Position numbers and translations under genes: made by a program. The notes below the pieces were generated by a model. The model ran no database searches. It was not told the DNA's origin and saw nothing but the letters and a program-made list of their open reading frames with translations. From NCBI GenBank assembly GCA_030390025.1, contig CM059431.1:124808001-124872000 (forward strand): a DNA stretch of 64,000 bases. Reading direction: 5' to 3'. Source of the DNA: Squalus acanthias. Taxonomy: Eukaryota. Position 1 is the first letter of the stretch; each line of letters begins with the position of its first letter. Positions 1 through 59,420 of the stretch are shown here, one piece after another.

Positions 1-2444
1 CACTTAACAGCCCAAGCCTGAACGTCGGACAGGTCTTGTTGCATGCGGGCATGGACTACTTCATTATCTGAGGAGTTGTGAATGGCACTGAACACTGTGC
101 AGTCATCAGCGAACATCCGCATTTCTGACCTTATGTTGAAGGGAAGGTCATTGATGAAGCAGCTGAAGATGTTTGGGCCTAGGACACTGCCCTGAGGAAC
201 TCCTGCAGCGATGTCCTGGGGCTGTGATGATTGACCTTCAACCACCACAACCATCTACCTTTCTGCTAGGCATGACTCCAACCAGTGGAGTGCTTTCCCC
301 CTGATTCTCATTGACTTCAGTTTTACTAGGGCTCCTTGATGCCAGACTCGGTCAAATGCTGCCTTGATGTCAAGGGCAGTCACTCTCAAATCACCTCTGG
401 AATTCAGCTCCTTTGTCCATGTTTGGACCAAGGCTGTAATGAGGTCGGGAGCCGAATGGTCTTGGTGGAACCCAAACTGGGCATCAGTGAGCAGGTGCCA
501 CTTAATAGCACTGTCGATGACACCTTCCATCACTTTGCTGATGATTGAGAGTAGACTGATGAGGCGATAATTGGTCGGGTTGGATTTGTCCAGCTTTTTG
601 TGGACAGGACATACCTGGGCAGTTTTCCACATTGTCGGATAAATGCCAGTGTTGTAGCTGTAATGGAACAGCTTGGCTAGAGGTGCGGCTAGTTCTGGAG
701 CACAAGTCTTCAGCACGATAGCCGGGATGTTGTCGGGGCCCATAGCCTTTGCTTTATCCAGTACGCTCAGCCGTTTCTTGATATCACGTGGAGTGAATCG
801 AATTGGCTGAAGAGTGGCTTCTGTGATAGTGGGGACCTCAGGAGTAGGCCGATATGGATCATCCACTCGGCACTGCTGGCTGAAGTTGGTTGCAAACACT
901 TCAGCCTTGTCTTTTGCACTCACGTGCTGGGCTCCACCATCATTGAGGATGGGGATATTCTTGGAGCCTCCTCCTCCCATTAGTTGTTCAATGGTCCACC
1001 ACCATTCACGACTGGATGTGGCAGGACTGCAGAGCTTTGATCTGATCCGTTGATTGTGGGATCGCTTAGCTCTTTCTATAGCGTGCTGCTTCCGCTTTTT
1101 AGCATGCATGTAGTCCTGTGTTGCAGCTTCCACACCTCATTTTTAGGTACACCTGGTGTTGCTCCTGGCATGCTCTTCTGCACTCCTTGTTGAACCCCTG
1201 GCTTGGTGGTAATATGCCAGGCCATGAGGTTACAGATTGTGGTGGAATACAATTCTGCACCTGCTGATGGCCCACAGTGCCTCATGGATGCCCAGTTTTG
1301 AGCTGTTAGATCTATCCCATTTAGCAAGGTGGTAGTGGCACACAACACGATGGAGGGTGTTCTCAGTGTGAAGACGGGACTTCGTCTCCACAATGGCTGT
1401 GCGGTGTTCACTGCTGCCAATGAAAGATGCATCTGCGACAGGTAGATTGGTGAGGACGAGGTCAAGTATGTTTCTCCCTCATGTTGGTTCACTCACCACC
1501 TGTCGCAGGCCCAGACTGGCAGCTATTTCCTTCAGGACTCAGCCAGTAGTGGTGCTACCGAGCCAATCGTGCTGATGGACATTGAAGTCTCCCACCCAGA
1601 GTACATTCTGTGCCCTTGCTACTCTCAGTGCTTCTTCCACAATGTGTTCAACATGGAGGAATACTGATTCATCAGCTGATGGGTGGCGGTAGGTGGTAAT
1701 CAGCAGGAGGCTTCCTTGCCCATGCTTGAACTGAAGCCATTAGACTTCATGGGGTCTGGAGTCAATGTTGAGGACTCCCAGGGCCACTCCTTCCCGACTG
1801 TATACCACTATGCCGCCACCCCTGGTGGGTCTGTCCTGCCGATGGGACAAGACATACCCAGGGATGGTGATGGAGGAGTTTGGGACATTGGCTGAAAGGT
1901 ATGATTCTGTGAGTATGACTATGTCAGGCTGTTGCTTGACTAGGCTGTGGGACAGCTCTCCCAATTTTGGCACACGTCCCCAGATGTTGGTGAGGAAGAC
2001 TTTGCAGGGTTGATTGGGCTGGGTGTGCCGTTGCCATGTCCGTAGCCGATGCCAAGGTCGATGCCGGGTGGTCCGTCTGGTTTCATTCTTATTATTTTGT
2101 TTCGTAGCAGTTAGTTACAACTGAGTGGTTTGCTAGACCATTTCAGAGGGCAGTTAAGAGTCAACCACATTGCTGTGGGTCTGGAGTCACATATAGGCCA
2201 GAGCAGGTAAGGACGGCAGATTTCCTTCCCTAAAGGACATTAGTGAACCAGATGGGTTTTTTACGACAATCCGATAGTTTTATGGTTACCATTACTGATA
2301 CTAGCTTTTTATTCCAGATTTATTTATTAACTGAATTTAAATTCCCCAGCTGCCATGGTGGGATTTGAACTAACGTTTCTGGATCATTAGTCCAGGCCTC
2401 TGGATTACTAGCCCAGTGACATTACCACTACGCTACCGTTCCCC
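1..2444 (-). mobile_element. CR1-group LINE, copy A: tRNA-derived 5' head, then APE endonuclease and RT; 3' part runs out of the window
   Basis: Minus-strand ORFs 1740..1973 (APE: PDIVILTESYL...RQDR...GGG) and 255..1133 (RT: AMGPDNIP, QFGF, ALDIKAAFDRVWH); 5' end reads GGGGAACGGTAGCGTAGTGG; homologous along its length to copy B. Confidence 0.93.
2361..2435 (-). promoter_or_regulatory. Type-2 Pol III internal promoter (A box + B box) at the 5' end of LINE copy A
   Basis: Sense A box TAGCGTAGTGG (2435-2425) fits TRGCNNAGYGG; B box GTTCAAATCC (2370-2361) fits GTTCRANNC; copy B keeps the B box at 2483-2492. Confidence 0.85.
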
Positions 2445-2447
2445 TTG

Positions 2448-5400
2448 ATCCAGAGGCCTCGACTAATGATCCAGAGACATGAGTTCAAATCCCACCACAG
2501 CAGCTGGGGAATTTAAATTCAGTTAATTAAATCAAACTGGAATAAAAACCTAGTAACAGTAATGGTAACCATGAAACTATCGGATTGTTGTAAAAACCCA
2601 TCTGGTTCACTAATGTCATTTAGGGAAGGAAATCTGCCGTCCTTACCTGGTCTGGCCTATATGTGACTCCGGACCCACAGCAATGTGGTTGACTCTTAGC
2701 TGCCCTCTGAAATGGCCTTGCAAGCCACTCAGTTGTAACAAACCGCTGCGAAACACAACTGGATGGATCACCCGGCATCGACCACGGCACCGGCTACGGA
2801 CACGGCAATCACACACCCAGCCCAGTCGAACCTGCAAAGTCCTCCTCACCAACATCTGGGGACTTGTGCCAAAATTGGGAGAGCTGTCCCACAGACGAGT
2901 CAAGCAGCAGCCTGACATAGTCATATGCACAGAATCATACCTTTCAGCCAATGTCCCAAACTCCTCCATCACCATCCGGCAGGTTTGCCAGGACACACCC
3001 AGGGATGGTGGCACAGTGGCCCTGGGAGTCCTCAACATTGACTCCAGAAGTCTCATGTCTTCAGGTCAAGCATGGGCAAGAAAACCTCCTGCTGATTACC
3101 ACCTATCGCCCCCCCTCAGTTGATAAATCAGTACTCCTCCATATTGAACATCACATCATTTGGAAGAAGCGGTGAGAGTAGCAAGGGCACAGAAAGTACT
3201 CTGGGTGGGGGACTTCAATGTCCATCAGCACGATTGGCTCGGTCGCACCACTATTGACCGAGCTGCCTGAGTCCTGAAGGACATAACTGCCAGTCTGGGC
3301 CTGCGACAGGTGGTGAGAGAACCAACATGAAGGAAAAGCCTACTTGACCTCGTCCTCAGCAATCTACCTGTTGCAGATACATCTGTCCATGACAGTAGTG
3401 GTAGCAGTGACCACCGCAGAGTCATTGTGGAGAGGAGGTTCCGTCTTCACACTGAGGACACCCTCCATCATGTTGTGAGGCACTACCACTGTGCTAAATG
3501 GGATAGATTCAGAACTGATCTAGCAGCTCAAAACTGGGCATCCATGAGGCACTGTGGGCCATCAGCAGGTGCAGAATTGTATTCCAACACAATCTGTAAC
3601 CTCATGGCCCGGCATATCCCTCACTCTACCATTACCATAAAGCCAGGGGACCAACCCTGGTTCAATAAGGAGTGTGGAAGAGCATGCCAGGAGCAGCACC
3701 AGGCATATCTAAAAATGAGGTGCCAACCTGGGGAAGCTGCAACACAGGACTACATGCATGCTAAAAAGCGGAAGCAGCATGCTATAGACAGGGCTAAGCG
3801 ATCCCACAATCAACGGAGCAGATCAAAGCTCTGCAGTCCTGCCACATCCAGTCATGAATGGTGGTGGATCATTAAACAACTAACGGGAGAAGGCGGATCC
3901 ATCAAAATACCCATCCTCAATGATGCTGGAGCCCAGAACGTGAGTGCAAAAGTCAAGGTTGAAGCATTTGCAACCATCTTCAGCCAGAAGTGCCGAGTGG
4001 ATAATCCATATCAGCCTACTCCTGAGGTCCCCATCATCACAGATGCCAGTCTTCAGCGAATTTGATTCACTCCACATGATATCAAGAAACAGCTGAACAC
4101 ACTGGATACAGCAAAGGCTATGGGCCCCAACAACATCCCGGAATCGTGCTGAAGACTTTTGCTCCAGAACTAGCCGCGCCTCTAGCCAAGCTGTTCCAGT
4201 ACAGCTACAACACTGGCATCTAACCGACAATGTGGAAAACTGCCTAGGTATGTTCTCTCCACAAAAACCAGGACAAATCCAACTTGGCCATTTACCGCCT
4301 CATCAGTCTACTCTCAATCATCAGCAAAGTGATGGAAGGTGTCATCGACAGTGCTATCCAGCGGCACTTACTCACCAAAAACCTGCTCACTGATGCCCAG
4401 TTTGGGTTCCGCCAAGACCACTTGGCTCAAGACCTTGTTACAGCCTTAGTCCAAACATGGGCAAAAGAGCTGAATTCCAGAGGTGAGATGAGAGTGACTG
4501 CCCTTGACATCAAGGCAACATTTAACCGAGTGTGGCATCAAGGAGCCCAAGTAAAACTGAAGTCAATGGGAATTGGGGGGAAAACGCTCCACTGGCTGGA
4601 GTCATACCTAGCTCAAAGAAAGATGGTTGTGGTGGTTGAAGGTCAATCATCACAGCCCCAGGACATCGCTGCAGGAGTTCCTCAGGGCAGTGTCCTAAGC
4701 CCAACCATCTTCAGCTGCTTCATCAATGACCTTCCCTCCAACATAAGGTCAGAAATGGGGTTGTTCGCTGATGACTGCACAGTGTTTAGTGCCATTCATA
4801 ACTCCTCAGATAATGAAGCAGTCCATGCCCACATGCAACAAGACCTGGACGATGTTCAGGCTTGGGCTGATAAGTGGCAGGTAACATTCATGCCACAGAA
4901 GTGTCAGGCAATGACTATCTCCAACAAGCGAGAGTCTAACCACCTCCCCTTGACATTCAATTGCTTCACCATCACCGAATCCCCCACCATCAACATCCTG
5001 GGGGGTCACCATTGACCAGAAACTTAACTGGACCAGCCATATAAATATTGTGGCAACAAGAGCAGGTCAGAGGCCTGGTATTCTGCAGCGAGTGTTTCAC
5101 CTTCTGACTCCCCAAAGCCTTTCCAACATCTACAAGGCACAAGTAAGGAGTGTGATGGAATACTCTCCACTTGCCTGGATGAATGCAGCTCCAAGAACAC
5201 TCAAGAAGCTCGACACCATCAAGGACAAAGCAGCCCGCTTGATTGACACCCCATCTACCACCTTAAACATTCACTCCCTCCACCACAGGCATACCGTGGC
5301 TGCAGTGTGCACCATCTACAAGATGCACTGCAGCAACTCGCCAAGGCTTCTTCGGCAGCACCTCCCAAACCCGCGACCTCTTCCACCTAGAAGGACAAGG

Positions 5401-5680
5401 GCAGCAAGCGCATGAGAACACCACCACCTCCAAATTCCCCTCCAATTCACACACCATCCTGACTTAGAAGTATATCGCCAATCCTTCATCGTCGCTGGAT
5501 CAAAGTCCTGGAACTCCCTCCCTAACAGCACTGTGGGAGTACCTTCACCACACGGACTTCAGCGGTTCAAGAAGGCGGCTCACCACCACCTTCTCAAGGG
5601 CAATTAGGGTTGGGCAATAAATGCTGGCCTTGCCAGCGATGCCCATATCCCATAAACGAATAATAAAAAAATAAAAAAAA
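2448..5680 (+). mobile_element. CR1-group LINE, copy B: near full length (~3.2 kb), lacks first ~40 nt including the A box; 3' stem-loop and A-rich tail
   Basis: Continuous APE-RT remnants; 3' end GCTGGC-CTT-GCCAGC hairpin inside a GGG..TGGGCA/TGCCCA..CCC stem, then AATAATAAAAAAATAAAAAAAA. Confidence 0.94.
2839..5607 (+). pseudogene. Single APE endonuclease + reverse transcriptase ORF of LINE copy B, broken by frameshifts and stops
   Basis: VLLTNIWGL, TESYL, YRPP, VGDFN, LDLV, SDH (APE); GVPQGSVL, FINDL, LFADD (RT); ends HHHLLKGN* at 5605-5607. Confidence 0.92.
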
Positions 5681-6082
5681 TCCTGCAGTACGGAGAATTG
5701 GTTATGAACTAGACAAGTAAAAGCAAAATATCTAGATATGAATATAGTAATAGCCTCGACCTTGCTTGTGCCCAGAGGAAACTAACTACAATTCAGTGTG
5801 ATAGACTTAGTAGCACTGAGTTCTCTTATCAATTTGCCTTATATACAGCTATTTTTCACTTATTGATGTAATCATGCAATGAGCCAATCTATCGAGTTAA
5901 CTGTTAACAGGAAACCAGTGGTCACTTTTGTTTGTGGTTTTAGAGCTGAAAATACAGGTAGCTTGATTCAATCCTACACCCAGGAAGAGACAAGTTCGCA
6001 GCTAAGATAATGTGGGACTAATAGTAGCTACCAGATCAGTAAAGTATGATCTGCTTTTGTCTATGGAATAAAACTTTTCAAT

Positions 6083-8545
6083 GAACTTAGGAATAAAGGA
6101 ACAGGAGCCGGCCATTTAGCCCCTCTAGCCTGTTCCGCCATTCAATGTGATCATGGCTGACCTGCGACCTAACTCCATATACCTGCATTTGCCCCATATT
6201 GCTTAATACCTTTGGTTAACAAAAATCTATCAATCTCAGATTAAAAATTAACAATTGATCTAGCATCAATTGCTGTTTGCGGAAGAGAGTTCCAAACATT
6301 GTTTCCTAATTTCACGCCTGAAACGTCTGGCTCTGATTTTGAGACTATGCCCCCTAGTGCATGGGGGAGAAATTGGCCTCCTTTGCGCCTCCCGTTAGCG
6401 CCTCCGGGAGCAATAATGAGGCACAAATGGGTTTGCGACTCGGCGTGGCGAATTGAGCGACGCCCGCGAAATTCACTGCCGCTTTTGTGCTGGCGTTAAG
6501 ACTCAGCGCCTTGGTTCCTAGCGTCCCAGTGATCGTGACGTCATCTGGTGCGCAGTGCCCTGTTATCGCCCCGGATCTGAAATTCGTTTCCGCCCCCTGC
6601 AGCATTGCCGGGCGTCAACAACGGCAGCTGCAGGAGGTGTTGTCACCGCAAATGGCCTCTTGGGGAGCAGTAATTAAAAGCAGTGGTTGTCAGATAAGCC
6701 AAAATTTTATTATCACCCCTAGTGTGCTGTTTTTTGAATTTTTACATTCCATGATTAATCAGCCCTGCACTCTCTTAGAGTGCTCTTCGTGAATCGCAGG
6801 AGCTGTCGCCGACCATTCCCAGCCTTACCTTTAAATGACCTCAGCATTGGCCCTTCCCTTTAAGGGAGGGAAGGAGCCTGTGAATCTGGCATCGCTGCAC
6901 GGGACATTGTGCAGCGCTCTGCCGCTACTGCCCCTCTTGCTCCATTTAGCATTCCAAGAGAAGTGGTAGTGCTTGATTTAAAAGTTATTGGCCCAAACGG
7001 GGTCTACACAATTTCTAGCCCCTAGAGTCCCCAACCAGTGGAAATAGATTCTCTCTATCTATGCTATCTGTTCCCCTTAATATCTTGAAAACATTTGATC
7101 AAATCACCTTCTAAATTCTAGAGAATACAAGCCTAATTTGTGAAATCTCTCCTCGTAGGTGAACCTTGAAGTCCGGCTATCATTCTGGTAAACCTTTGCT
7201 GCACTCTCTCCAAGGCCAATATATCCTTCCATTAGCCTTTTTGATTATTTTCTGTACCTGTTCATGACATTTTAATGATCTATGTACCTGGACCCCCAAA
7301 TCTCTTTGGACCTCCATTGTTTTTAGCTTTTCACCATTCAGAAAGTACCTTGTTTATCCTTTTTAGGTCCAAAGTGGATGACCTCACATTTGCTTACATT
7401 GAAATCCATTTGCCACAGTTTTGCCCATTCACTTAATCTATCAATATCCCTTTGTAATTTTCTGCTTTCAACTACACTGCCTAGAATGCCGCCTATCTTT
7501 GTGTCATCGGCAAATTTAGATATGTGGCTTTCTATCCCATCATCTAAATCATTAATAAATATGATGAATAGTTGAGGCCCCAACACAGATCCCTGCCAAT
7601 TAGAGTACCTGCCCATCCTTACTCTCTGTCTCCTGCCGCTCAGGCAATTTCCTAACTTGCCTTCAATTCCATGGGCTTCAGTTTTAGTTAACAGCTTCTT
7701 ATGCGGGACTGTATCAAATGCCTTCTCGAAGTCCATATAAGTAACATCCATAGACATTCCCAAGTCCACTACATTAGTCATCTCTTCAAAATATTCAATC
7801 AGGTTCGTCAGGCATGACCTACCTTTTACAAATTCATGCTGGCTCTCTCTGATTAGCTGGAAATTTTCAAGCTGTTCACTCACAATATCCTTAATTATAG
7901 ACTCTAGTAATTTCCGACAACAGATGATGGGCTAACTGGTCTATCATTCCTTGGTTCTCCTCTCTCACCATTCTTAAACAATGGAGTGACATGCACAATT
8001 TTCCAATCTAAAGGAACGGTTTCTGAATCGAGAGAACTTTGGAAGATTATAGTTAGGGTATCTGCAATGTGCTAACCTATTTCCTTTAAAACCCTGGGAT
8101 GGAAACCATCTGGTCCTGGGGTTTGTCACTCTTTAGTGCCATTATTTTCTTCATTACTGTTATTTTACTTACGTTAATTTTGTTGAGTCCCTGTCCCTGA
8201 TTCAATATTAGTTTCCTTGGGATGTCTAGCATGCTCTACTATATATACTGACACAAAGTAATTATTCAACAGGTCCGCCATTTCCTTATTATCATTGACA
8301 ATATCATCGATATCAGTTTTTAAGGGGCCAACATTGCTCCTGACCAGCCTTTTTTCCTAATATAATTGTAAAAAACATTTGTGTTGATTTTGATATCCCT
8401 TGCAAGTTTCTTTTCATGCTTCCCTTCTGTAGCTCTTACTATCTGTTTTGTCACCCTTTTCTTTTCTTTCTATCTTTCCCATTCCCCAGGATCAGTGCTA
8501 TTTTTTGCATTTTTGCATGCTTTATCTTTTAGTTTTATGTTTTTC
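6083..8545 (-). mobile_element. CR1 LINE, 5'-truncated, split by a MITE
   Basis: ORF 7338..7883 (SQHEFVKGRSCLTNL, DFEKAFD, QGSVLGP, KFADDTK); CR1 3' UTR at 6083-6360 resumes at ~7023. Confidence 0.9.
6363..7022. mobile_element. Non-autonomous Harbinger-type element (MITE) inserted in CR1
   Basis: Termini GGGGGAGAAATTG ... CAATTTCTAGCCC; CpG-rich with repeated (T)AGCGCC motifs; CR1 sequence continuous across it. Confidence 0.75.
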
Positions 8546-9000: not shown

Positions 9001-11327
9001 AGATAGGTATGAGGGGCGACTTGGCTAAGGTACATTGGGAAACTACATTAAAAGATACAATAGTTAGAGAAGCAATGGCTAGCTTTTAAAGAATAAATAC
9101 ATAATTTACAACACATATACATTCCTTTAAGGCACAAAATCCCCACAGGAAAAGTGATCCAACTGTGGCTAACAAGAGAAGTTAAAGATAGTATTAGATC
9201 AAAGGAAGAGGCTTATAATGTTGCCAAAAAGAGTAGTAAACCTGAGGATTGGGAGGATTTTAGAATTCAGCAAAGGAGGACCAAGAAATTGATAAAGAAA
9301 GGGAAAACATAATATGAGAATAAACTAGCGAGAGACATAAAAACAGATTATAAAAGCATCTATAGATATGTAAAAACAAAAAGATTAATGAAAGTAAATG
9401 TGGGTCCATTACAGGCTGAGACAGGAGAAATTATTATGGGAAATAAGGAAATTGCAGAGAAATTAAACAAATCCTTTGGGCTGGATTTTGCCAATGGGAG
9501 CGCGTTGGAGGTGGGACTGCTGCTTGTCGGGTTTCAGTCCTGCCTCCATTGACTTCTGGCCAAACCATGCTATTTTCCCTTGATTGACCTTGTTAAGACT
9601 GCCCAGCGACTCTCCAGGGCTGGCAAAATCCAACCCAGTGTGCCTGTCTTCACGGAAGAAGACGCAAAAACCTTCCCGGAAATAGTGGAGAACCAAAGGT
9701 CTAGCGAGAATGAGGAACTGAAGGAAATTAATATTAATAAATAAATAGTATTGGAGAAATTAATGGGACTGAAAGTTAATAAATCCCCAGGACCTGATGG
9801 CCTACATCCTAGGGTTTTGAAAGAGTTGGCTATAGAGATAGTGGATGCATTGGTTGTCATTTTCCAAAATTCCATTGATTCTGGAACAGTTCCCGCGGAT
9901 TGGAAGTTAGCAATGTAACCCCATTATTTAAGAAAGGAGGGAGAGGGAAAATGGGGAACTACAGACCAGTTAGCCTGACATCAGTAGTAGGGAAAATGCT
10001 AGAATCTATTATTAAGGACATGGTAACAGGGCACTTGGATAATAATAATAAGATTGAGCAGAGTCAACATGGATTTATGAAAGGGAAATCGTGTTTGATG
10101 AATCTGTTAGTTTTTTGAGGTTGTAACTAGCAGAATAGATAAGGGGGAACCAGTGGATGTGGTGTATTTGGATTTTCAGAAGGCATTTGATAAGGTGCCA
10201 CACAAGAGGTTATTAAACAAAATTAGGGCTCATGGGATTGGGGGTAATTTACTAGCATGGATTGAGGATTGATTAATTGGCAGAAATGGAGAGTAGGAAT
10301 AAATGGGTCATTTTCGGGTTGGCAGGCTGTAACTAGTGGGGTACTGCAAGGATCAGTGCTTGGGCCTCAGCTATTCACAATCTATATCAATGACTTGGAT
10401 GAGGGGACCAAATGTAATATATCCAAGTTTGCAGATGATACAAAGCTGGGTGGGAATGTAAGTTGTGAGGAGGATGCAAAGAGGCTTCAAGGGGATATAG
10501 ACAGGCTAAGTGAGTGAGTAAGAACATGGCAAATGTAATATAATGTGGAGGAATGTGAAGTTATCCACTTTGGTAGGAAAAATAGAAAAGCAGAGTATTT
10601 TTTAAATGGTGAGAGATTGGAAAATGTTGGTGTTCAGAGGGACCTGGGTGTCCTTATACACGAATCACTGAAAGCTAGCATGCAGGTACAGTAAGCAATT
10701 GGGAAGACAGGTGGTGTGTTGGCCTTTATTGTAGGAGGATTTGAGTATAAGAGTAGAGACGTCTTACCGCAATTATATAGGGCCCTGGTGAGACCACACC
10801 TGGAGTATTGTGTACAGTTTTGGTCTCCTTGCCTAGGGAGGGATATACTTGCCATAGAGGGAGTGCAACAAATGTTCAGCAGACTGATTCCTGGGATGGG
10901 GGGATTGTCTTGTGAGGAGAGATTGATTGTCTGGGCCTATATTCTCCAGAGTGAAGAGAAATGAGAGGTGATTTCATTGAGGCATGCAGGGTTCTTGCAT
11001 GGCTTGGCGGGGTGGATGCAGGGATGATGTTTCTCCTGACTGGGGAGTCTAGAACCAGGGGTCACAGTCTCAGAATGAGGGGTCGGCCATTTAGGACTGA
11101 GATGATGATAAATTTCTTCCCTCAGAGGGTGGTGAATCTTTGGAGTTCTCTGCCCCGGAGGGCTGTGGAGGCTCAGTCGTTGAGTGTATTGGATGGATTT
11201 TTGGATGTTGGGGGAGTCGAGGGATGTGGGGATGTTGCAGGAGGGTGGAGTTGAGGTGGAAGATTAGCCATGAAATTATTGAATTGCTCGAGGGGCCAAA
11301 TGACCTACTCCTGCTCGTATTTCTTAT
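9001..11327 (+). mobile_element. CR1 LINE (RT and 3' end) inserted into a SINE
   Basis: ORFs 9900..10118 (GNYRPVSLTS, SQHGFMKGKSC), 10269..10517 (QGSVLGP, FADDTK), 10716..10964 (LVRPHLEYCVQFWSP). Confidence 0.93.
9478..9636. mobile_element. 159-bp Harbinger-type MITE nested in CR1
   Basis: 16-bp terminal inverted repeats (TIRs) GGGCTGGATTTTGCCA / TGGCAAAATCCAACCC (1 mismatch). Confidence 0.85.
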
Positions 11328-12347: not shown

Positions 12348-12990
12348 TTTTAAATCTCCCACTGAACTTCTGTCGTTTTACCCATTAACAGATTTGCCCA
12401 GTTTACTGTGGACAGTCTCTGTCTCATCCCGTTGAAGTTGGCCTTACCTAAATCTAGAATCTTTGTAGCTGTTTCGCATTTCTCCCTTTCAAACACTACG
12501 TTGAACTCAATCATGTTATGATTGCTATTAGATAAATGTTCACGCACTGTTAGGCTGTTTACTAAATCTGGCTCATTACTCATTGTTAAATCTAATATGG
12601 CATGGCCCCTTGTTGCCTCTAGGACATATTGTTGCAGAAAACTGTCCCGAGCACACTCAAGAAATTCACTACCTTTCTGATAGGTGCTAGTCTGCTTATC
12701 CCAATCTATATGAAAGTTAAAATCCCCCATTAAAACCACTCTGCCTTTACAACATGCTTGTCTAATCTCTGCAGTTATACAATCTAGCACTTCATAGCTG
12801 CTACCAGGGGGCCTATACACAACTCTGGCTACAGTCGTAAATCCTTTGCTTTTTGTTAATTCTACCCATAACGTCTCCACTGCCTGCTTACCTCTCGTTA
12901 TATCCTCTCTTATCATTGTAATGATTGCATCCTTAATCACTGAGGCTACTCCTCCCCCTCTACCATTTTCCCTAACTTTCCTGTCAAACT
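12348..12990 (-). pseudogene. CR1 APE endonuclease fragment
   Basis: GRGGGVA, ETLWVEL, VYRPP, MGDFNF, AILDL in ORF 12350..13024. Confidence 0.9.
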
Positions 12991-13989: not shown

Positions 13990-16412
13990 ATAGAATCATA
14001 GATACTATCCTCCTTACTGTTTACTATATTTCCAAGTTTCACGTCATCTGTAAACTTTGAAATTATGCTCTGTATATCTAAGTCCAGGTCATTAACATAT
14101 ATCAAAAAGAGCAGTGCTTCCAGCACTGACCCCTAGGGGACACCACTGCACATTTCTCTCCAGTCTGAAAAACAACCGTTCACTACTATTCTCTGCTTTT
14201 TGTCCCTTAGCTCATCTCGTATTCAGGCAGCCACTGCCCCTTTAATCCCATGGGCTTCAATTTTGCTGACAAGTCTATTATGTGATACATTATCAAATGC
14301 CTTTTGAAAGTCCATATACACAACATCAACCAAATTACTCTCATCAACCCACTCCATTACTTCATCAGAGAACTCAATCAAGTTAGTCAAACACGATTTG
14401 CCTTTAACAAATCTATGCTAGCTTTCATTTATTAACCCATATTTTTCCAAGTGCTAATTAATTTTGTCCTGGATTGTTCTCCATAAAAGTTTCCCCACCA
14501 CTGGCATTAGACTGACTGGCCTGTAGTTGCCAGGTTTATCCCTCTCCCCTTTTTTGACAGGTGTGTAACATTTGCAATCCTACAGTCCTTTAGTACCACT
14601 CTCATATCTAAAGAGGATTGGAAAATTTAGGACATAATCTCCACCCTTACTTCCCTCAGCAACCGAGGATGCATCCCATCTGGACCGGGTAACCTTTTTA
14701 CTTTGAGCGCTGTCAACCTTTTATGTACCTACTTTTTATCTATTTTGATCCTATCCAAATTCTCTATTACCTCCTCCTTTACTGTGACATTGGCAGCATC
14801 TTCTTCTTTAGTGAAGACAGGTGCAAAGTATTCATTTAGTACCTCAGCCATGCCCTCTGCCTCCACAAGAATATCTCCTTTTTGGTGTCTAATCAGCCCC
14901 AACCTTCCTTGACTACCCATTTACTATTTATATGTTTTTAAAAGACTTTAGGGTTCCCTTTTATGTTACCCACTAATCTATTCTCATGCACTCTCTTTGC
15001 CCCTCTTATTTCCTTTTTCAGTTTTCCCCTGTACATTCTGTATTCAGCTTGGTTCTCTACTGAATTGTAAACCCGACATTTATCATAACCTTCCTTTTTC
15101 TGTTTAGTTTTAATCATTATATCTTTAGTCATCCAGGAAGCTCTAGCTTTGTATGCCCTTCCTTTCCCCGACAACAACAACTTGCATTTATATAGAGCCT
15201 TTAACATAGTTAAAGTCTCCCTCCTGGGAATGAGTCTAGTCTGTACCTAAACTATCTTCTCTTTGAAGGCTTCCCATTGTTCATTTACTGTTTTGCCTGC
15301 CAATCTTTGATTCCAATCCACCTGGGCTAGATCCCTTTCGAACTCTAGTTGAGTATTTTCATATTTGATTTTTCCTCATCCTTTTCCATTACTACTCTAA
15401 ACTTAATGATATTGTGATCATGGTTTCCCAAGTGCTCTCCCACTGAAACATGCTCCACTTGCCTCACTTGATTCCCCAAAACTAGATCCAGCACTGCCTC
15501 CTTCCTTGCTGGACTGGAAACATGCTAATCAAGAAAGTTCTCTTGTACACAGTTCAAGAATTCATCCCCCTCTTTGCTCTTTACACTGTTACTATCCCAG
15601 TCTACACTAGGATAATTGAAGTCCCCGATATCACAACTCTAAAGTTCTTGCATCTTTCTGCAATTTGCCTGAAAAATTGCTCCTCTTTCACGTTCCTACT
15701 ATTTGGTGCCCTATAGTATACACCCAGCAGCATAATAGCTCCTCTATTGTTCCTTAATTCTAACCAAATAGATTCTGTCTTTGAACCCTCAAGTAAATCA
15801 TCCCTTTCTAGTGATGTAACAGTATCTTTGATCAATACTGCCACCCCTCCTTTTTTTCTTCCCTATCTTTGCTGAATACATTGTAGCCAGGAATATTAAG
15901 TACCCATTCCTCCTCTTGTTTAAGCCAGGTCTCTGTTATTGTCACTATAACATAATCTCATGTTGCTACTTATGCCTGCAGCTCCCCAACCTTATTTACC
16001 ATGCTCCGTGCATTTAAGCAGATGCAAGCTAAACTCATCTTAGCCTGCTCCCCTGTCTGATCCCTCCTATTTCTGAACAACTCTGTATTCTAATGCTGTT
16101 TGTCTCTCACAGTCCTCTGTGCACCTTGTATCTCCTCTCTAATGCTTCATCTTGTTGCCCCTCCCCCAGCCAAATTAATTTAAACCCTCCCCCACAGCAC
16201 TAGTTAACCTCCCTGCGAGGACATTGGTCTCAGCCCTGTTGAGGTGCAACCCATCCATCCTGTACAGGTCCCTCCTGCCCCAGAACTGGTTCCAACATCC
16301 CAGGAATCTGAAGCCCTCCCTACTGCACCATTTCTGCAGCCATACATTAACCTGTCTTATCATACTGCTCCTATACTCATTAGCATGTGGCACTGGGAGT
16401 AATCCAGAGATA
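13990..16412 (-). mobile_element. CR1 LINE with ORF1 C-terminus, APE and RT N-terminus
   Basis: ORFs 15602..15844 (ESIWLEL, GVYYR), 14938..15207 (NIKGNPKVF), 14729..14920, 13878..14126. Confidence 0.88.
16175..16410 (-). pseudogene. CR1 ORF1p SGNH/GDSL esterase-like domain, C-terminal part
   Basis: ISGLLPVP...NVWLQKWC..EGFRF...DGLHLN...LAGRL is typical of CR1 ORF1. Confidence 0.85.
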
Positions 16413-16734: not shown

Positions 16735-17400
16735 CATGTTTTCCAGCATGTCAATATCAATTCCTTGTTGTCAAAGTGCTGATATAACTCTGTGCGACCA
16801 TCTTAAAATTTCATCTGTTTTCTCACACGACTTGGTGCCATCCGATAACTTAATTATTTTATTTTTAAGAATTTTGGATATTAATATTGTGAACAGCAGT
16901 GGTGCCAGGATTGACCTGCGGGACCTCCGCTGCTCACACTGCCTGATTAAAACTGTTATAATGAGTCTTTTGTTTCCTGTTTTTACCCAGTTTATTATGC
17001 AATTCACAACTCTGCTTTATTTAAATAGCTTTCACTTCAGCCACAGGTCTTCTCTGAGACACCTTAGAAACTGCCTTCTGAAAGTCAAGATGTACAATAT
17101 ACACCACATTAACACCAATTACCAATTCTGCTACATCCTCAAAAAATTTCTCTAATTTTGTTTGGCATAATGTGTCTTTCAAATAACCATGGTGTCTTAT
17201 CTTTACTCTCATTAAGTGCTTTTGAATTGCTTACTTTATAATAGATTGCAGTGCCTCTTCCACTATCGATGTCAAGCTGACAGGTCTATAGTTACCAGGA
17301 TCACGCTTTGACCTTTTTCAAAAATTGGAACAACATTAGTTACATTCCAATTTGCTCGCACTATTCATATATTTAATAAGCTTTGAAAAAAAATCAGCTG
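16735..17400 (-). mobile_element. Old degenerate CR1 RT fragment
   Basis: VVYIVHLDFQKAVSKV; ILAPLLFTILI; reverse complement of an NYRPVSLTS-type segment near 17270-17295. Confidence 0.7.
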
Positions 17401-17659
17401 CAGCACTCTATTTTCATTTCTTTAAAGTACTCTTGGAAAAATGCTATATAGTTCTATTCGCATATGGGCATTCAAACACTCCTATTTTTTGTTCCAATTC
17501 TCTCCCCTTTTCTTGCTTTCTCTTCCGAAGCTGATTGCTTAGGCTGAAATATGGTCTGGTACCTCACTCAAGTGCTCACCCTTTGCATGCAAGGCAGACT
17601 AATCAAATGCTTCTTGCGTTTTGTGTGGCTGCACTCATCCAGGCAAATGGTGAATATTC

Positions 17660-20080
17660 TGGTACACTCCTGACCTGAGCTTTAGATGGTGGAGAAGCTT
17701 TGGGAGGTGAGCAACTCATTACTAAATACCCAGCCTTGGCCCTGCCCTTGTAGCTAATGTGATGATATGGCTAGTGCAATTAAGCTTCTGGTTAATGGTG
17801 ATCCCTAGGATGTTGATAGCGAAGGGCTTGGTGATAATTGTGCCATAGAAGGTCAGGGGAGATGGCTGAGCTTTCTCTTGTTCAAAATGGTTATTGCATG
17901 GCATTTACGTGGTGTGGATGTTACCTGCTATTTGTCAGCCCAGGTTTGGATATTGTCCAACTCCTGCTGTAGGTTAGCATGGGCTGCTTCTTTATCAGAG
18001 GATTTGTAAATGCAGCTGAGCTCTGCAGAATCATCGGTGAACAACCCAATTCCTGACTTTACAATAGGGGAATGGTGTTTATGAATCAGCTGAAGATGGA
18101 TTGGCCAAGGACGCTTCCCTGAGGAACTCCTGCAGCAATATCCTGGAGTTACAATGATTTGCCAATGACAGGCATAACCATCTTCTTTTGTGTCAAGTAA
18201 GCCACTGTAAAATTTTCCTTTTGACCTCCATTGACCTCAGTTTTGCCATGGCAACTTGATGTTCCACTCACTCGAATGCTGCATTTATATCAAGGACAGC
18301 AACGTTCACCTGTAAAGTTTCGCAATTATCGCGATTCGAAATAACAAGAGAGAAGCAGATTCGTTTGATCAGTTTTATTAAACGAAATGCTGTCCTGATA
18401 ATAAAGGACACAGAAGACTGTAAAATGGCCGCCGCGCATCGTGGCAGAAGCTTCCAGAGATACAGTGGGCAGACAAGATGGCGTTGAATAAACATTCAAT
18501 ATAAGATTGGATCATACTCGATAAACACTGATAAAGACAGGATGCAACCCGTTTGCATTTGTGACAATAGCAAAGATATAAGTGCTGGAATCATTTTCCA
18601 TGCACAAGTAAGGACCATTGTACTGGGCAATCGAAGGCCCATCCAGACACATCAATACACAAATACCCCCACGGCTCTACAATGAGAGAGACATTGACGG
18701 GTGATTAAGCAAGTATTCGGGGGCCCCCAAAACCAGTCAGGGAGACGATTCATACGATCCTGGCTGGGTCAACAATGGGGAAAACATTAACGGATAGTTG
18801 GCCAGTTTCAGGTGCTACCGAAACCCGTTAAAGAGAAGAATCGCCCCATGCTGGGAGTTTTGAGCGCCAATATTACACAAAGGACAAACATTAAGATTTG
18901 AGCGGGAGATAAGGGAACACAGCACTATAACTATAGTGAACAAATGTCCATCGGTCTCTTGATTCGACTCTTATTCTCCCGGCTGGCTCTGATCCTCGGG
19001 TATTGCTCTGCTGGACGAGCAGCCCTCTGTGTTTCTCTGGACTTTGTTGACTCTTGACTCTTAGCCGTACTGGTCGGTTATTCGAATGTTGGGTGGAGCT
19101 CACTCGGAACGAGCCGACCCGAAAAGGGCAAGTAACCGGGTGCACCATCCCGAGTGTCGGTAAACGGTGTCTGGACCCGAAGGCCCGAAGAGACGAGACG
19201 AGACGAGAAGAAGAGGAGAAGAATCCACGTGCCGCCACGGTCAGGAAACCCCGACCGCGCCCGAAAATATAAATACAGAACTCATCTTTGAATTCTACGG
19301 GTTAATGCACGATCCGGTTTGAGTCCTGTCGAGTTCTTCATGACAACAGGGAGTCTGGCCTGCTTGTTGCAGCAGCGAAAATAAACAAGTTGGGTACAGA
19401 GACCCTTCCAAACACGTGACAGTCAGGCGCTGCAGCGAAACGAGCCGAGTGCCTCACTTTAAAATTCTCCGAAGTAACACGAGCGGTGAGCATGTTTCCC
19501 GATCCTACAAATCTAGACGTAGTGTAGGTATTGTTAAGGGAGGGTGGTTATTAAGGTTAAAGTATAATGTGTTCCCCTTTTTACGATGTGCCGTGCGTTC
19601 TTCATTTCCATAGACCAAGCTTTATGAATGTATGTATACTTGTACTCTCGTTAATTTGTGCCTATGACATGTACTTCATGATTTTGGACGCTATGCAATA
19701 AAGATTTCCATTTTGTACTATTCAACCGGGTCTATTTGAGTTTTCTCTGCATTACTGCTCCCTGCACCTAAGTCCAGTGTTAGAACCGTAAGGGCGAGTG
19801 GGTCGAACCACTCACAGGTGCTTATTGCAATAAGGCTGGCCGGAGACCAGAGCAAGCAATAGTATTAGGCAACGAAGGCCTAACCTCGCACCAGCACCGT
19901 CTGAGACACAGGCACAAACCCTTACACACCACTTCTTCCATATTCAACTCTTGTATCCACGATGGGATCAAGGTGGGAATAAGCTCTGGACATGACTGAT
20001 TCTTAAAGTAAGCATTGGTGAGCATGTTATTGATCGTCATATGCTGCTTGATGGTACCACTAATGACACCTGCCATCATG
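17660..20080 (-). mobile_element. Older, degenerate copy of the same LINE family as copies A/B (RT region), split by a solo LTR at 18311-19926
   Basis: CCCTGAGGAACTCCTGCAGC and AVLDINAAFE before the LTR; GVISGTIKQH...LTNAYF after it, contiguous in LINE coordinates. Confidence 0.8.
18311..19926 (+). mobile_element. Solo LTR, 1616 bp (ERV or Gypsy type)
   Basis: TGTAA...TTACA termini; perfect 4-bp TSD CACC (18307-18310 / 19927-19930); TATA-like ATATAAA ~19267; AATAAA ~19697; no internal genes. Confidence 0.88.
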
Positions 20081-20385
20081 TTGGAGGTGCCGTCTTTCAG
20101 ATGAGACGTTAAACTGAGGACCTGTCTGCTCTCTCAGGTGGACGTAAAAGATCCCTTGGCACGTATTTCGAAGAAGAGCAGGGGAGTTATCCCCGGTGTC
20201 CTGGCCAATATTTATCCCTCAACCAACATAACAAAAACAGATTATCTGGTCATTATCACATTGCTGTTTGTGGGGCCTTGCTGAGCACAAATTACAACAG
20301 TGACTCCACTTCAGAAGTACTTCATTGGCTGTAAAGCGCTTTGAGATGTCTGGTGGTCATGAAATGCGCTATATAAGTGTAAGTG
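20078..20385 (+). mobile_element. Deu-domain SINE, 5'-truncated
   Basis: GGTGGACGTAAAAGATCCC...GTCCTGGCCAATATTTATCCCTC...GCGCTATATAAG. Confidence 0.85.
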
Positions 20386-44997: not shown

Positions 44998-46587
44998 AGA
45001 ATGGATAGCTAGCTGGTTTCAGGGGTAAAGGGTAGCTATTCAGAGTGGCTGAAGGTGGGAAGTGGGGTCCCACAAGAACCAGTGCTGGGACCAATGCTGT
45101 TCACTATTTATATTAGCGATTTAGACTTTGGAATCTAAAACACAATTTCTAAATTTACAGATGACACTAAATTCGGAGGAATAGTTAATACTGAGGAGGG
45201 CTGCAACAAATTACAAGGCCGAGATTTTGAGGCACAGCAGGATGAGGTTGAGTGTGGGTTTGTACTAATGTTGCATGATCTACTGAGATCATTGAAATGT
45301 TTGTGGCACTGCACCCAGGCTTGCCTCACCACATCCCTGCTTGTGTCCTCCTCTGCAATGTGCAACCAGGCTGTGTTGATCTCCTAGGGAGGTCTCTTCC
45401 ACCCACGGGAAGGGAAGAGGACCTCCCTGTGTGCTGTGGGAGAGCCTGGGTGCAGCCCTGTGCCTTTATGCAGTTATTGTCAGTGTTTGCAGCACTTCAA
45501 TGCTGTAGAACACTGACAGCACAAGTGTGAAAATAAAGTTGGCCATGGTCCCTTTATGGAAACCGGCAGAAAACGCGTCATCAAATTACGTCACCAGAGT
45601 CACTTCCTCTAATTGGCCGGGAAAAGCGCTGGGTGGGCTTAACAAGCCCTATCAAGAGAAATGCATTTCAGGCAGCGGGATGGAGCCAGCAGCGGGCTTG
45701 GGAGCCGGCTCCGACATCGCCCGCCACGGACCTGCCAAGGTCAGCAAAATCGCGGCTCAAGACATTAATAAACTTGCAGAATAGGCATATAATTGGCAAA
45801 TGAATTTCAACACAAATAAACGTGAGGTATTACATATTGTTAAGAAAAAAAAGGAGGTTACATATTACTTGGAAAATAAGAATCTAAATGGGGTAAAAGA
45901 GCAAAGGGATCTTGGAGTACAAATATACAAATCACTAAAAGTAGCGATGCAGTTTAATATGGCCATATAAAAGGAAACCAAGTACTAGGGTTTATTTCTA
46001 CAGGGATAGAATTGAAAAGTAGAGAAATTATGCTAAACTTGTATCGAACCTTGGTTAGACCACACTTGGAGTATTATGTACAATTCTGGTCACCATATTA
46101 TAAAAAGTATATAGAGGCACTGGTGTGGGTACAAAAAAGACTTACAAGGATGATACCAGAAATGTGAGGGTATACCTATCAGGACAGGATGAATGGGCTG
46201 GATCTCTTTTCTCTAGTAAAGAGAAGGCTGAGGGGGTGACCTAATAGAGGTCTTTAAAATTATGAAAGGTTTTGATAGATGAGACACACAGAGAATGTTT
46301 CCAATTGTGGGGAAGAGCAAAATTAGAGGCCATCAATATAAGATAGTCAACAAGAAATCAAATAGGGAATTCAGAAGAAACTTCTTTACCCAGAGAGTGG
46401 TGAGAATGTGGAACTCGCTACCACAGGGAGTGGTTGAATTGAATAGTATAGATGCATTTAAGGGGAAGCTAGATGGTTATACTGATAGAGTTAGGTGAGG
46501 AAAGACGGGAGGAGGCTCGAGTGGAGCATAAACGATTGGGTCGAATGGCCTGTTTCTGTGCTGTATGTCCTATGTAATCCTATGTAA
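44998..46587 (+). mobile_element. CR1 3' part inserted at the start of Myb exon 2
   Basis: [14 protein letters not shown], LVRPHLEY, FFTQRVVRMWNSLP; tail CCTATGTAATCCTATGTAA. Confidence 0.9.
45217..45757. mobile_element. Harbinger MITE nested in CR1, TSD CAA
   Basis: CAA|GGCCGAGATTTTG ... CAAAATCGCGGCT|CAA; contains a Myb exon-1 remnant. Confidence 0.88.
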
Positions 46588-50799: not shown

Positions 50800-52389
50800 A
50801 GAATGGATAGCTAGCTGGTTTCAGGGGTAAAGGGTAGCTATTCAGAGTGGCTGAAGGTGGGAAGTGGGGTCCCACAAGAACCAGTGCTGGGACCAATGCT
50901 GTTCACTATTTATATTAGCGATTTAGACTTTGGAATCTAAAACACAATTTCTAAATTTACAGATGACACTAAATTCGGAGGAATAGTTAATACTGAGGAG
51001 GGCTGCAACAAATTACAAGGCCGAGATTTTGAGGCACAGCAGGATGAGGTTGAGTGTGGGTTTGTACTAATGTTGCATGATCTACTGAGATCATTGAAAT
51101 GTTTGTGGCACTGTACCCAGGCTTGCCTCACCACATCCCTGCTTGTGTCCTCCTCTGCAATGTGCAACCAGGCTGTGTTGATCTCCTAGGGAGGTCTCTT
51201 CCACCCACGGGAAGGGAAGAGGACCTCCCTGTGTGCTGTGGGAGAGCCTGGGTGCAGCCCTGTGCCTTTATGCAGTTATTGTCAGTGTTTGCAGCACTTC
51301 AATGCTGTAGAACACTGACAGCACAAGTGTGAAAATAAAGTTGGCCATGGTCCCTTTATGGAAACCGGCAGAAAACGCGTCATCAAATTACGTCACCAGA
51401 GTCACTTCCTCTAATTGGCCGGGAAAAGCGCTGGGTGGGCTTAACAAGCCTTATCAAGAGAAATGCATTTCAGGCAGCGGGATGGAGCCAGCAGCGGGCT
51501 TGGGAGCCGGCTCCGACATCGCCCGCCACGGACCTGCCAAGGTCAGCAAAATCGCGGCCCAAGACATTAATAAACTTGCAGAATGTGCATATAATTGGCA
51601 AATGAATTTCAACACAAATAAACGTGAGGTATTACATATTGTTAAGAAAAAAAAGGAGGTTACATATTACTTGGAAAATAAGAATCTAAATGGGGTAAAA
51701 GAGCAAAGGGATCTTGGAGTACAAATATACAAATCACTAAAAGTAGCGATGCAGTTTAATATGGCCATATAAAAGGAAACCAAGTACTAGGGTTTATTTC
51801 TACAGGGATAGAATTGAAAAGTAGAGAAATTATGCTAAACTTGTATCGAACCTTGGTTAGACCACACTTGGAGTATTATGTACAATTCTGGTCACCATAT
51901 TATAAAAAGTATATAGAGGCACTGGGGTGGGTACAAAAAAGACTTACAAGGATGATACCAGAAATGCGAGGGTACACCTATCAGGAAAGGATGAATGGGC
52001 TGGATCTCTTTTCTATAGTAAAGAGAAGGCTGAGGGGGTGACCTAATAGAGGTCTTTAAAATTATGAAAGGTTTTGATAGATAAGACACACAGCGAATGT
52101 TTCCAATTGTGGGGAAGAGCAAAATTAGAGGCCATCAATATAAGATAGTCAACAAGAAATCAAATAGGGAATTCAGAAGAAACTTCTTTACCCAGAGAGT
52201 GGTGAGAATGTGGAACTCGCTACCACAGGGAGTGGTTGAAGTGAATAGTATAGATGCATTTAAGGGGAAGCTAGATGGTTATACTGATAGAGTTAGGTGA
52301 GGAAAGACGGGAGGAGGCTCGAGTGGAGCATAAACGATTGGGTCGAATGGCCTGTTTCTGTGCTGTATGTCCTATGTAATCCTATGTAA
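50800..52389 (+). mobile_element. Duplicated CR1 copy with nested MITE 51019-51559 (TSD CAA)
   Basis: Near-identical to 44998-46587. Confidence 0.9.
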
Positions 52390-58094: not shown

Positions 58095-59420
58095 CTGACA
58101 TACTTGGAGAGGCAAGGATTAATCAAGAATAGTCAGCATGGCTTTGTCAGGGGGAGATCATGTCGACCCAATTTGATTGAATTTTTCGAGGGGGCGACTA
58201 GGTGTGTGGATGAGGGTAGTGCATTTGATGTAGTCTACATGGACTTCAGTAAGGCTTTTTGACAAAGGCCCCGCATGGGAGACTGGTCAAGAAGGTAAGA
58301 GCCCATGGGATCCAGGGCAATTTGGCACATTGGATCCAAAATTAGCTTAGTGGCAGGAGGCAGAGGGTGATGGTCGAAGGTTGTTTTTGTGGCTGGAAGC
58401 CTGTGTCCAGTGGTGTACCGCAGGGATCGGTGCTGGGTCCCTTGCTGTTTGTAGTGTACATTAATGATTTAGATATGAATGTAGGAGGTATAATCAGTAA
58501 GTTTGCAGATGACACGAAAATTGGTGGAGTGGTAAATAGCGAGGAGGGAAGCCTCAGGCTACAGGACGATATAGACGGGTTGGTCAGATGGGCAGAACAT
58601 TGGCAAATGGAATTTAACCCTGAAAAGTGTGAGGTGATGCATTTTGGGAGGACTAACAGGGCAAGGGAATACACAATGAATGGTCGGACCCTAGGAAGGA
58701 CAGTGGATCAGAGGGACCTTGGTGTGCATGTACATAGATCCCTGAAGGCAGCAGGACAGGTAGATAAGGTGGTTCAGAAGGCATATGGGATACTTGCCTT
58801 CATTAGCCGAGGCATAGAATATAAGAGCAGGGAGGTTATGATGGAGCTGTACAAAACGCTAGTTCGGCCACAGCTGGAATACTGTGAGCAGTTCTGGTTG
58901 CAACACTATAAGAAGGATGTGATTGCATTAGAGAGGGTGCAGAGGAGATTCACCAGGATGCTACCTGGGCTGGAGCGTATCAGCTATGAAGAGAGACTGG
59001 ACAGGCTGGGGTTGTTTTCCTCAGAGCAGAGAAGGCTGAGGGGGACATGATTGAGGTGTACAAAATTATGAGGGCATAGATAGGGTAGATAGAAAGGAAC
59101 TTTTCCCCTTAGTAGAGGGTTCAATAACCAGGGGGCATAGTTTCAAGGTAAGGGGCAGGAGGTTTAGAGGAGATTTGAGGAAAAACCTTTTCACCCAGAG
59201 GGTGGTTGGAATCTGGAACTCACTGCCTGAAAGCGTGGTAGAGGCAGGAACCCTCACAACATTCAAGAAGCATTTAGATGAGCACTTGAAACGCCATAGC
59301 ATACAAGGCTACGGACCAAGTGCTGGAAAATGGGATTAGAATAGATAGGGCTTGATGGCCGGCGCGGACACGATGGGCCAAAGGGCCTCTTTCTGTGCTG
59401 TACAACTCTATGCCTCTATA
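58095..59420 (+). mobile_element. CR1 LINE RT and 3' end, relatively young
   Basis: ORF 58367..59050 (SGVPQGSVLGP, KFADDTKIGG, LVRPQLEYC); tail CTCTATGCCTCTAT. Confidence 0.93.

Follow-up and report, generated by a model that had tools for sequence, protein, structure and literature searches.

A 64,000-nt stretch of the Squalus acanthias genome (GenBank assembly GCA_030390025.1, contig CM059431.1, positions 124,808,001 to 124,872,000; hereafter the window) raises the question of whether a protein-coding long interspersed element (LINE) can have, as its own 5' end, the tRNA-derived head and the body of a short interspersed element (SINE), and, if so, which of the two came first and which RNA polymerase reads the composite. 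Positions 1-5680 of the window contain two copies of one such retrotransposon placed head to head, copy A on the plus strand and copy B on the minus strand. A first-pass annotation, made from the letters of the window, had proposed that they belong to an autonomous SINE-LINE chimera driven by an internal promoter for RNA polymerase III (Pol III). Our favored explanation, which we hold to be rather likely as a whole, has at its center a family of ~3.3-kb retrotransposons without long terminal repeats (non-LTR) in which a SINE module of ~330 nt constitutes the true 5' terminus.

A SINE-type module at the 5' end of a LINE family

Genome searches were carried out on the 3.7-Gb assembly containing the window, and each of them scored the best 40 candidates, which yields proportions and not copy numbers. 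A query spanning window positions 2100-2900 (best 40 of 10,664 first-look candidates scored) identified 28 other loci, and the junction between the body and the open reading frame (ORF) was the same in all of them. The query segment responsible for selecting these loci did not include the first 40 nt of the head, so that their 5' ends are counted without bias: 22 of the 28 have their start somewhere in the first 9 nt of the head, the other six at positions 36-51. A second query, consisting of head and body (326 nt), returned 29 loci, one of which (L072) is the same place as locus L011 of the first search; 26 of the 29 run on into the ORF, the exceptions being L053 and L064, which stop at position 384, and L067, which is rearranged. 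Such recurrence goes far beyond chance: the junction belongs to the build of the family and did not come about through the accidental landing of a SINE, as the first-pass annotation had maintained. The 400-nt flanks upstream of 23 loci share nothing adjoining the head, with one 118-nt and one 37-nt match located at other offsets; there is hence no longer 5' untranslated region (UTR) and no ORF1, either of which the annotation had named as telling against its proposal.

The 14 full-length copies used to derive a 3317-nt majority sequence diverge from it by 2.3-5.8%. As a check, the annotation had called for a count of full-length copies that begin at the tRNA-related head and are flanked by target-site duplications (TSDs); the 5' ends are as given above, and TSDs are not regular, 14 of 17 other copies presenting none and the remaining three only short, doubtful flank matches. 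The family otherwise shows the features of non-LTR retrotransposons: an apurinic/apyrimidinic endonuclease (APE) and a reverse transcriptase (RT) in one element, dispersed copies, 5' truncation (in two of six hits to the tail), an A-rich 3' end and, for copy B, a TSD.

A sensitive blastn search revealed no other copies of head plus body or of the tail in the 64-kb window, and an nhmmer profile run on the window and about 290 kb of locus sequence added one diverged relative, located beside L053 and L064. These two loci (G000:C1615, locus positions 1359-1882) are near-identical, lie on one contig and continue into unrelated sequence after position 384; the relative, found just upstream in both, is a body copy in inverted orientation, ~74% diverged and presumably an old SINE relative.

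Organization of the element

Element positions 1-100 correspond to the tRNA-related head and positions ~100-330 to a body of ~230 nt. The anticodon-arm hairpin is doubled in the head; the A box lies at positions 11-21 and, because of this duplication, the B box lies at 75-85, 53 nt away. The A box TAGCGTAGTGG and the B box GAGTTCAAATCC are the majority state among copies. Head and body together do not fold more stably than shuffled sequences (z 0.41). The majority sequence has one continuous open frame, of 973 codons (332-3250), which encodes APE and RT and no ORF1, and in sister copies Pfam detects Exo_endo_phos (2.2e-10), Exo_endo_phos_2 (1.3e-10) and RVT_1 (6.3e-36). Arg and His abound in the N-terminal extension of this frame. 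The stop codon of the ORF falls inside the tail of ~110 nt, leaving a 3' UTR of ~64 nt.

The tail ends in ...AATAAATG...TGAATGAAT, which we take to resemble the L2 tail; together with the literature on the LINE partners of shark SINEs, this is the basis for calling the element L2-like, a label given by tail and not by RT phylogeny. As in LINEs of the stringent type, the 3' tail is common to the LINE and its partner SINEs. Single-ORF L2-clade LINEs with a stringent tail (L2-2_CM, UnaL2 and ZfL2-2) are like the present family in their length of ~3.3 kb, in encoding APE and RT without an ORF1, in sharing their tail with SINEs and in their frequent 5' truncation. The family differs from them in having a tRNA-related SINE module that carries Pol III boxes where they have an ordinary 5' UTR, and in the lack, in its majority sequence, of an in-frame ATG ahead of APE.

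SINEs that share both ends of the LINE

The annotation had also suggested that the LINE might be the parent, by internal deletion, of a SINE sharing both its head and its tail. Multi-copy families of SINEs made of the same head, body and tail do exist in the same genome, which supports that idea. A 130-nt core query identified eight loci: four carry full heads linked to the LINE, a fifth is a LINE form that is truncated, and the remaining three consist of head, body and tail. The SINE sample is small, with three copies examined in full (L089, L093 and L096) and one in part (L090). In LINE coordinates, the body is joined to the tail at 327->3212 in L093, at 333->3199 in L090 and at ~370->~3203 in L089, while L096 provides a further complete copy that has the L093 junction as well as a full head. 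When the L093-type junction was used as query, all 39 other best hits spanned it, at 89-95% identity; for the L089-type junction this held for 36 of 39 hits (77-90% identity), the other three matching the tail only. In contigs of four public runs of uncertain library kind, joints skip 2884-2967 nt, from the end of the body (positions 474-530 of L038) to the tail (3372-3445). At least two multi-copy SINE families are, therefore, the 5' module of the LINE (to ~327 or ~370) joined directly to its last ~110 nt. The L089 type keeps LINE positions 330-370, up to the region of the ATG, unlike the other SINE types. The SINEs have head variants in common with two older LINE copies (L015 and L016), and the LINE-linked head of L095 is ~82% identical.

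SINEBase (PMC3531059), in its passages on the definition, describes SINEs as nonautonomous elements under 700 bp with an internal Pol III promoter. The ~430-nt elements at L089, L093 and L096 fit that definition, whereas the window element, at 3.3 kb and encoding APE and RT, does not. In build and size these elements equal the Deu-SINEs of the SacSINE1 and LmeSINE1 type found in cartilaginous fishes and coelacanth (Nishihara 2006, Luchetti 2017). The likeness, drawn by build and not by sequence, lies in the tRNA-related head, which has A and B boxes, in the conserved body and in the tail of an L2-type LINE. The body is a putative Deu domain, and its kinship with SacSINE1 is presumed.

The partial SINE copy at L090 (G000:C1329:404765-405494) comprises body and tail and is interrupted on either side by satellite repeats arrayed in units of ~31 nt (...CCATACCCATTATCCCTACAGGGATAGTCTGTGATGG...).

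Transcription of the full-length LINE

Under the explanation favored here, the head would act as a portable internal promoter, with the transcription start fixed at its first G, and would be copied with every full-length retrotransposition. Pol III would act from this head on the SINE forms and may also transcribe the full-length LINE, whose sense strand would have been purged of T runs, avoiding early termination, and whose ORF would be translated from a non-AUG start. We put the chance that Pol III transcribes the full-length LINE at slightly less than even, on the grounds of sequence composition and promoter boxes. Judged by the consensus and spacing of type 2 Pol III promoters, the A and B boxes of the family have tRNA-like spacing, and no run of four or more T (T4+) occurs before the 3' end. 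A run of four T is the termination signal of Pol III. The sense strand of the majority sequence contains no T4+ run (zero to one per copy) and 15 A4+ runs, and its observed/expected ratios are 0.71 for TT and 1.0 for AA; in eight fragments of other LINEs in the window (5182 nt, sense strand), TT stands at 1.07 and there are 21 T4+ runs. Within the ORF, codon boundaries with T on both sides number eight against 24.1 expected, a value as low as which was reached in none of 2000 codon-order shuffles. By the same shuffles, T3+ runs are depleted (5 versus 11.2 expected, P 0.0045) and A4+ runs are at expectation (12 versus 11.9). The usage of Phe codons (TTT:TTC = 3:15) is not distinctive. The maintained boxes, the sharp 5' ends, the lack of T4+ runs and the avoidance of T3+ runs and of T at both sides of codon boundaries thus make the sequence compatible with Pol III. 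If Pol III does make the full-length RNA, the family would be a coding retrotransposon expressed by this polymerase and escaping the logic of silencing directed at RNA polymerase II (Pol II), and it would have to be explained how translation proceeds on an RNA lacking both a cap and an AUG start.

Several observations weigh against transcription of the LINE by Pol III. The Rfam tRNA model aligns with the D and anticodon arms of the head, but reaches 16.7 bits where the gathering score is 29 (E 0.28 over 121 nt); ARAGORN found no tRNA, and an Rfam scan of 8 kb at E<=1 gave no tRNA hit. The absence of T4+ runs is by itself weak (P 0.02 for mononucleotide, 0.23 for dinucleotide and 0.16 for codon-order shuffles), and the LINE fragments used as control, being old and decayed, have inflated numbers of T runs. 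Pol III products are normally short and uncapped, and the translation of a 973-codon ORF from one would be unusual. Finally, the tail carries AATAAA motifs, which would suit polyadenylation of Pol II transcripts. A weakness of another kind concerns the ORF: in the majority sequence its first in-frame ATG is at residue 286, and neither there nor at window positions 2739-2870 does an in-frame ATG precede the APE domain; a conserved ATG at element position 360 is in another frame, as it is in at least 10 of 14 copies.

It is accordingly a substantial possibility, though one to which we assign distinctly less than an even chance, that Pol II transcribes the LINE, that the SINE-derived module serves as a 5' UTR with an internal Pol II promoter gained through 5'-end switching, and that the short SINEs are the only Pol III units. 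LINEs are generally transcribed by Pol II and need a translatable messenger RNA, as Kojima (2018, PMC5786205) also states, and 5'-end switching is a mode of LINE evolution documented in a preprint on Nicotiana SolRTE. Sharp 5' ends would suit an initiator-type Pol II promoter as well, and the AATAAA motifs are also in line with it, as is the fact that the T4+ absence alone is not significant under the dinucleotide and codon-order nulls. Transcription by Pol II, however, leaves unexplained both the strand-specific avoidance of T3+ runs and of T at both sides of codon boundaries, with A runs at expectation, and the low TT ratio relative to the other LINEs of the window. Moreover, an intact head with A and B boxes preceding a unit devoid of T runs would be expected to recruit Pol III anyway.

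Fusions of Pol III small-RNA sequence to the 5' side of a LINE occur likewise in the U6-L1 and tRNA-L1 chimeric retrocopies, which arise by template switching and are one-off, dead-on-arrival pseudogenes built on truncated L1. Here, in contrast, a whole multi-copy family, whose majority sequence has an open ORF, inherits the fusion as its 5' end. R2 elements have a 5' end made by a self-cleaving ribozyme and need a ribosomal DNA target. They provide a precedent for a LINE RNA that does not come from a Pol II promoter of its own (Kojima 2018, PMC5786205). R2 RNA derives from the Pol I transcript of ribosomal RNA. The present family differs in being dispersed and in having a putative internal Pol III promoter, and Rfam detected no ribozyme in window positions 1-8000.

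Direction of descent between LINE and SINE

The SINE families probably derive from head-bearing LINEs, given the structure of their joints, and would have originated by internal deletion or by template jumping between the end of the body and the tail. Repeated deletion of the LINE is preferred over capture of a SINE because the breakpoints differ, because the L089 type retains LINE positions 330-370 and because head variants are shared with L015 and L016. A LINE bearing a whole SINE head and body, alongside SINEs that equal this LINE minus its ORF, outlines a concrete and testable route for the birth of SINEs, in which the fusion of tRNA and LINE comes first and the deletion second.

The same kind of reasoning has been applied to Bov-B, Bov-A and Bov-tA and to cases from RTE and Vingi (Okada and Hamada 1997; Kojima 2018), in which the SINE likewise holds 5' and 3' parts of its partner LINE, and the presence of both parts points to an internally deleted LINE as the ancestor. 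In that model the bipartite LINE has no head at first and acquires one from a small RNA at a later stage, whereas here the autonomous LINE carries the head; the present LINE, furthermore, is not evidently an RTE or a Vingi element. Passages of Kojima (2018, PMC5786205) call the origins of conserved SINE bodies completely unknown and report that a Repbase-wide screen found LINE 5' parts in SINE bodies from RTE and Vingi only. No description of a LINE with a tRNA-derived SINE head was found in the open literature, a search outside which Repbase Reports and Dfam lay, and a 20-mer of the body gave no full-text literature match.

Our argument for descent from LINE to SINE is drawn from the breakpoints only, which is a weakness of this analysis, and further evidence runs in the opposite direction. 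An older tRNA-headed SINE may have existed first, with the LINE capturing its head and body by template switching or recombination, a reversal that we regard as unlikely but by no means negligible. SINEs of the SacSINE1 type, with tRNA head, Deu domain and L2 tail, are reported in chimaera, sharks and skate, and this combination of head, conserved body and tail is ancient in cartilaginous fishes, according to the sections of Luchetti (2017, PMC5499810) concerned with them. The catalogued LINE partner, L2-2_CM, is described and drawn in those sections as sharing the tail only, unlike the autonomous LINE found here, which also bears head and body. The SINE copies of the L089 type, at 77-90% identity, look older than the young LINE copies sampled, which are 2-6% diverged, and the ~74% diverged body copy beside L053 and L064 also fits an early SINE. 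Capture of a SINE does not readily account, on the other hand, for three distinct breakpoints between body and tail, nor for the retention of LINE positions 330-370 in the L089 type, which is what independent deletions of the LINE predict. It would also need a switch exactly at the boundary of body and tail that left no remnant of the SINE tail, and it has to face the existence of older LINE-linked heads, such as that of L095 or those of L015 and L016 with their SINE-shared variants.

The most far-reaching version of descent from LINE to SINE combines it with Pol III transcription: the autonomous LINE would be a Pol III gene, 3.3 kb long, free of T runs and without a cap-proximal AUG, and the conserved-body SINEs of cartilaginous fishes would be its internal-deletion offspring, their body being the 5' leader of the LINE and the fusion of tRNA and LINE preceding the SINE. 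We advance this version tentatively and consider it rather doubtful.

A full-length copy inserted into the head of another

The two copies at the start of the window were resolved with an additional 1.2 kb upstream of it. Their features are as follows, in window coordinates.

1..2445, minus strand: copy B, the part inside the window; the whole copy is a full-length LINE (~3237 nt), with its 3' end at window-relative -791, and lies antisense in the head of copy A
2345..2445, minus strand: tRNA-related head of copy B, with A box TAGCGTAGTGG (2435-2425), B-box-like TAGTTCAAATCC (2372-2361; the B box itself placed at 2371-2361) and two anticodon-arm-like hairpins
2115..2344, minus strand: SINE-type body of copy B, its end being CAGTTGTAAC (2123-2114)
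2446..2467, plus strand: right copy of the TSD, TGATCCAGAGGCCTCGACTAAT, 22 nt, from the insertion of copy B; equals positions ~39-60 of the copy A head
2446..2738, plus strand: rest of the 5' SINE module of copy A, with second hairpin, B box GAGTTCAAATCC (2481-2492) and body to CAGTTGTAAC (2730-2739)
2739..5607, plus strand: decayed APE and RT open frame of copy A, with stops and frameshifts; TAG stop at 5605-5607; residues 28-973 matched by tblastn at 2806-5604
5554..5671, plus strand: 3' tail module common to the SINE families, with the last 17 codons, the ~64-nt 3' UTR and the A-rich end

Inspection of ORFs shows the frame of copy A split into pieces, and in copy B the in-frame stop that opens the long ORF sits within the CAGTTGTAAC motif. 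Copy A enters the window at 2446, which is head position ~39, and at that place it has the B box without the A box. Its A-box end lies 3.3 kb upstream of the rest of it, outside the window: beyond the tail of copy B (-791), the sequence is the reverse complement of head positions 1-57, that is, the 5' end of copy A directly before copy B. These first 57 nt of copy A (GGGAACAGTAGCGTAGTGG...GGACTAAT) occupy G000:C7:124807151-124807208 (window-relative -849 to -792) and are followed by the copy B tail. The left copy of the TSD, TAATCCAAAGGCCTGGACTAAT, is located at -813 to -792, also outside the window, and is identical to the right copy at 19 of 22 positions. Flanked on both sides by the 22-nt duplication, with the first part of the copy A head beyond its tail, copy B is consequently a full-length insertion into the head of a full-length copy A. 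Copies A and B have 12 derived substitutions in common, while 120 occur in A alone and 78 in B alone; they are therefore independent copies, of which A is the older. In this layout the younger, antisense copy B interrupts the head of the older full-length copy A, with a 22-bp TSD.

This layout revises part of the first-pass annotation. The sequence features that it reported exist, but strand and ownership were misassigned: window positions 2100-2445 are the 5' module of copy B on the minus strand, and the string GGGGAACGGTAGCGTAGTG, which the annotation gave as the beginning of copy A, corresponds to window positions 2426-2445 in reverse complement and thus to the head of copy B read backwards (on the minus strand, 2445-2426 of copy B reads AGGGGAACGGTAGCGTAGTG). 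Copy B, which had been presented as a separate copy with the same head, is nested in the head of copy A, between the first 57 nt of A and the rest, with the 22-nt duplication around it.

Copies A and B abut head to head and at first sight resemble a palindrome, yet a local accident (a SINE landing by chance before a LINE truncated at its 5' end, a duplication in the form of a palindrome or an artefact of assembly) is given next to no credence here, being refuted by the same junction at at least 54 other loci, by the 12 substitutions shared by A and B, which lie within the range of 0-15 that copy A shares with each of thirteen unrelated copies, and by the nested insertion with its TSD, which explains the whole layout. 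Palindromic duplication and double priming of A and B were likewise rejected on the substitution counts and on the copy A head fragment and TSD beyond the tail of copy B.

Four of the 28 copies of the first search, all otherwise near-complete (L006, L019, L020 and L021), start at head positions 36-42. Copy A breaks at the same place, but only through the insertion of copy B. Head positions 36-42, in the first hairpin, may be a hot spot of truncation or insertion.

Other features of the window

Decayed fragments of other LINEs, with 24-71% protein identity to the present ORF, occur at 7356-8116 (-), 9754-10889 (+), 12389-12961 (-), 14007-14833 (-), 17015-18312 (-), 19885-20085 (-) and 58277-58963 (+). 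Inverted repeats I13 and I14 are two of these fragments facing each other. A weak Rfam match to mir-499 at 6661-6735 (23 bits, gathering score 60, E 0.34) is probably due to chance. Two RT-like hits with equal scores, at 45013-45201 and 50815-51003, are on the same strand and 5.8 kb apart, which suggests a local duplication.

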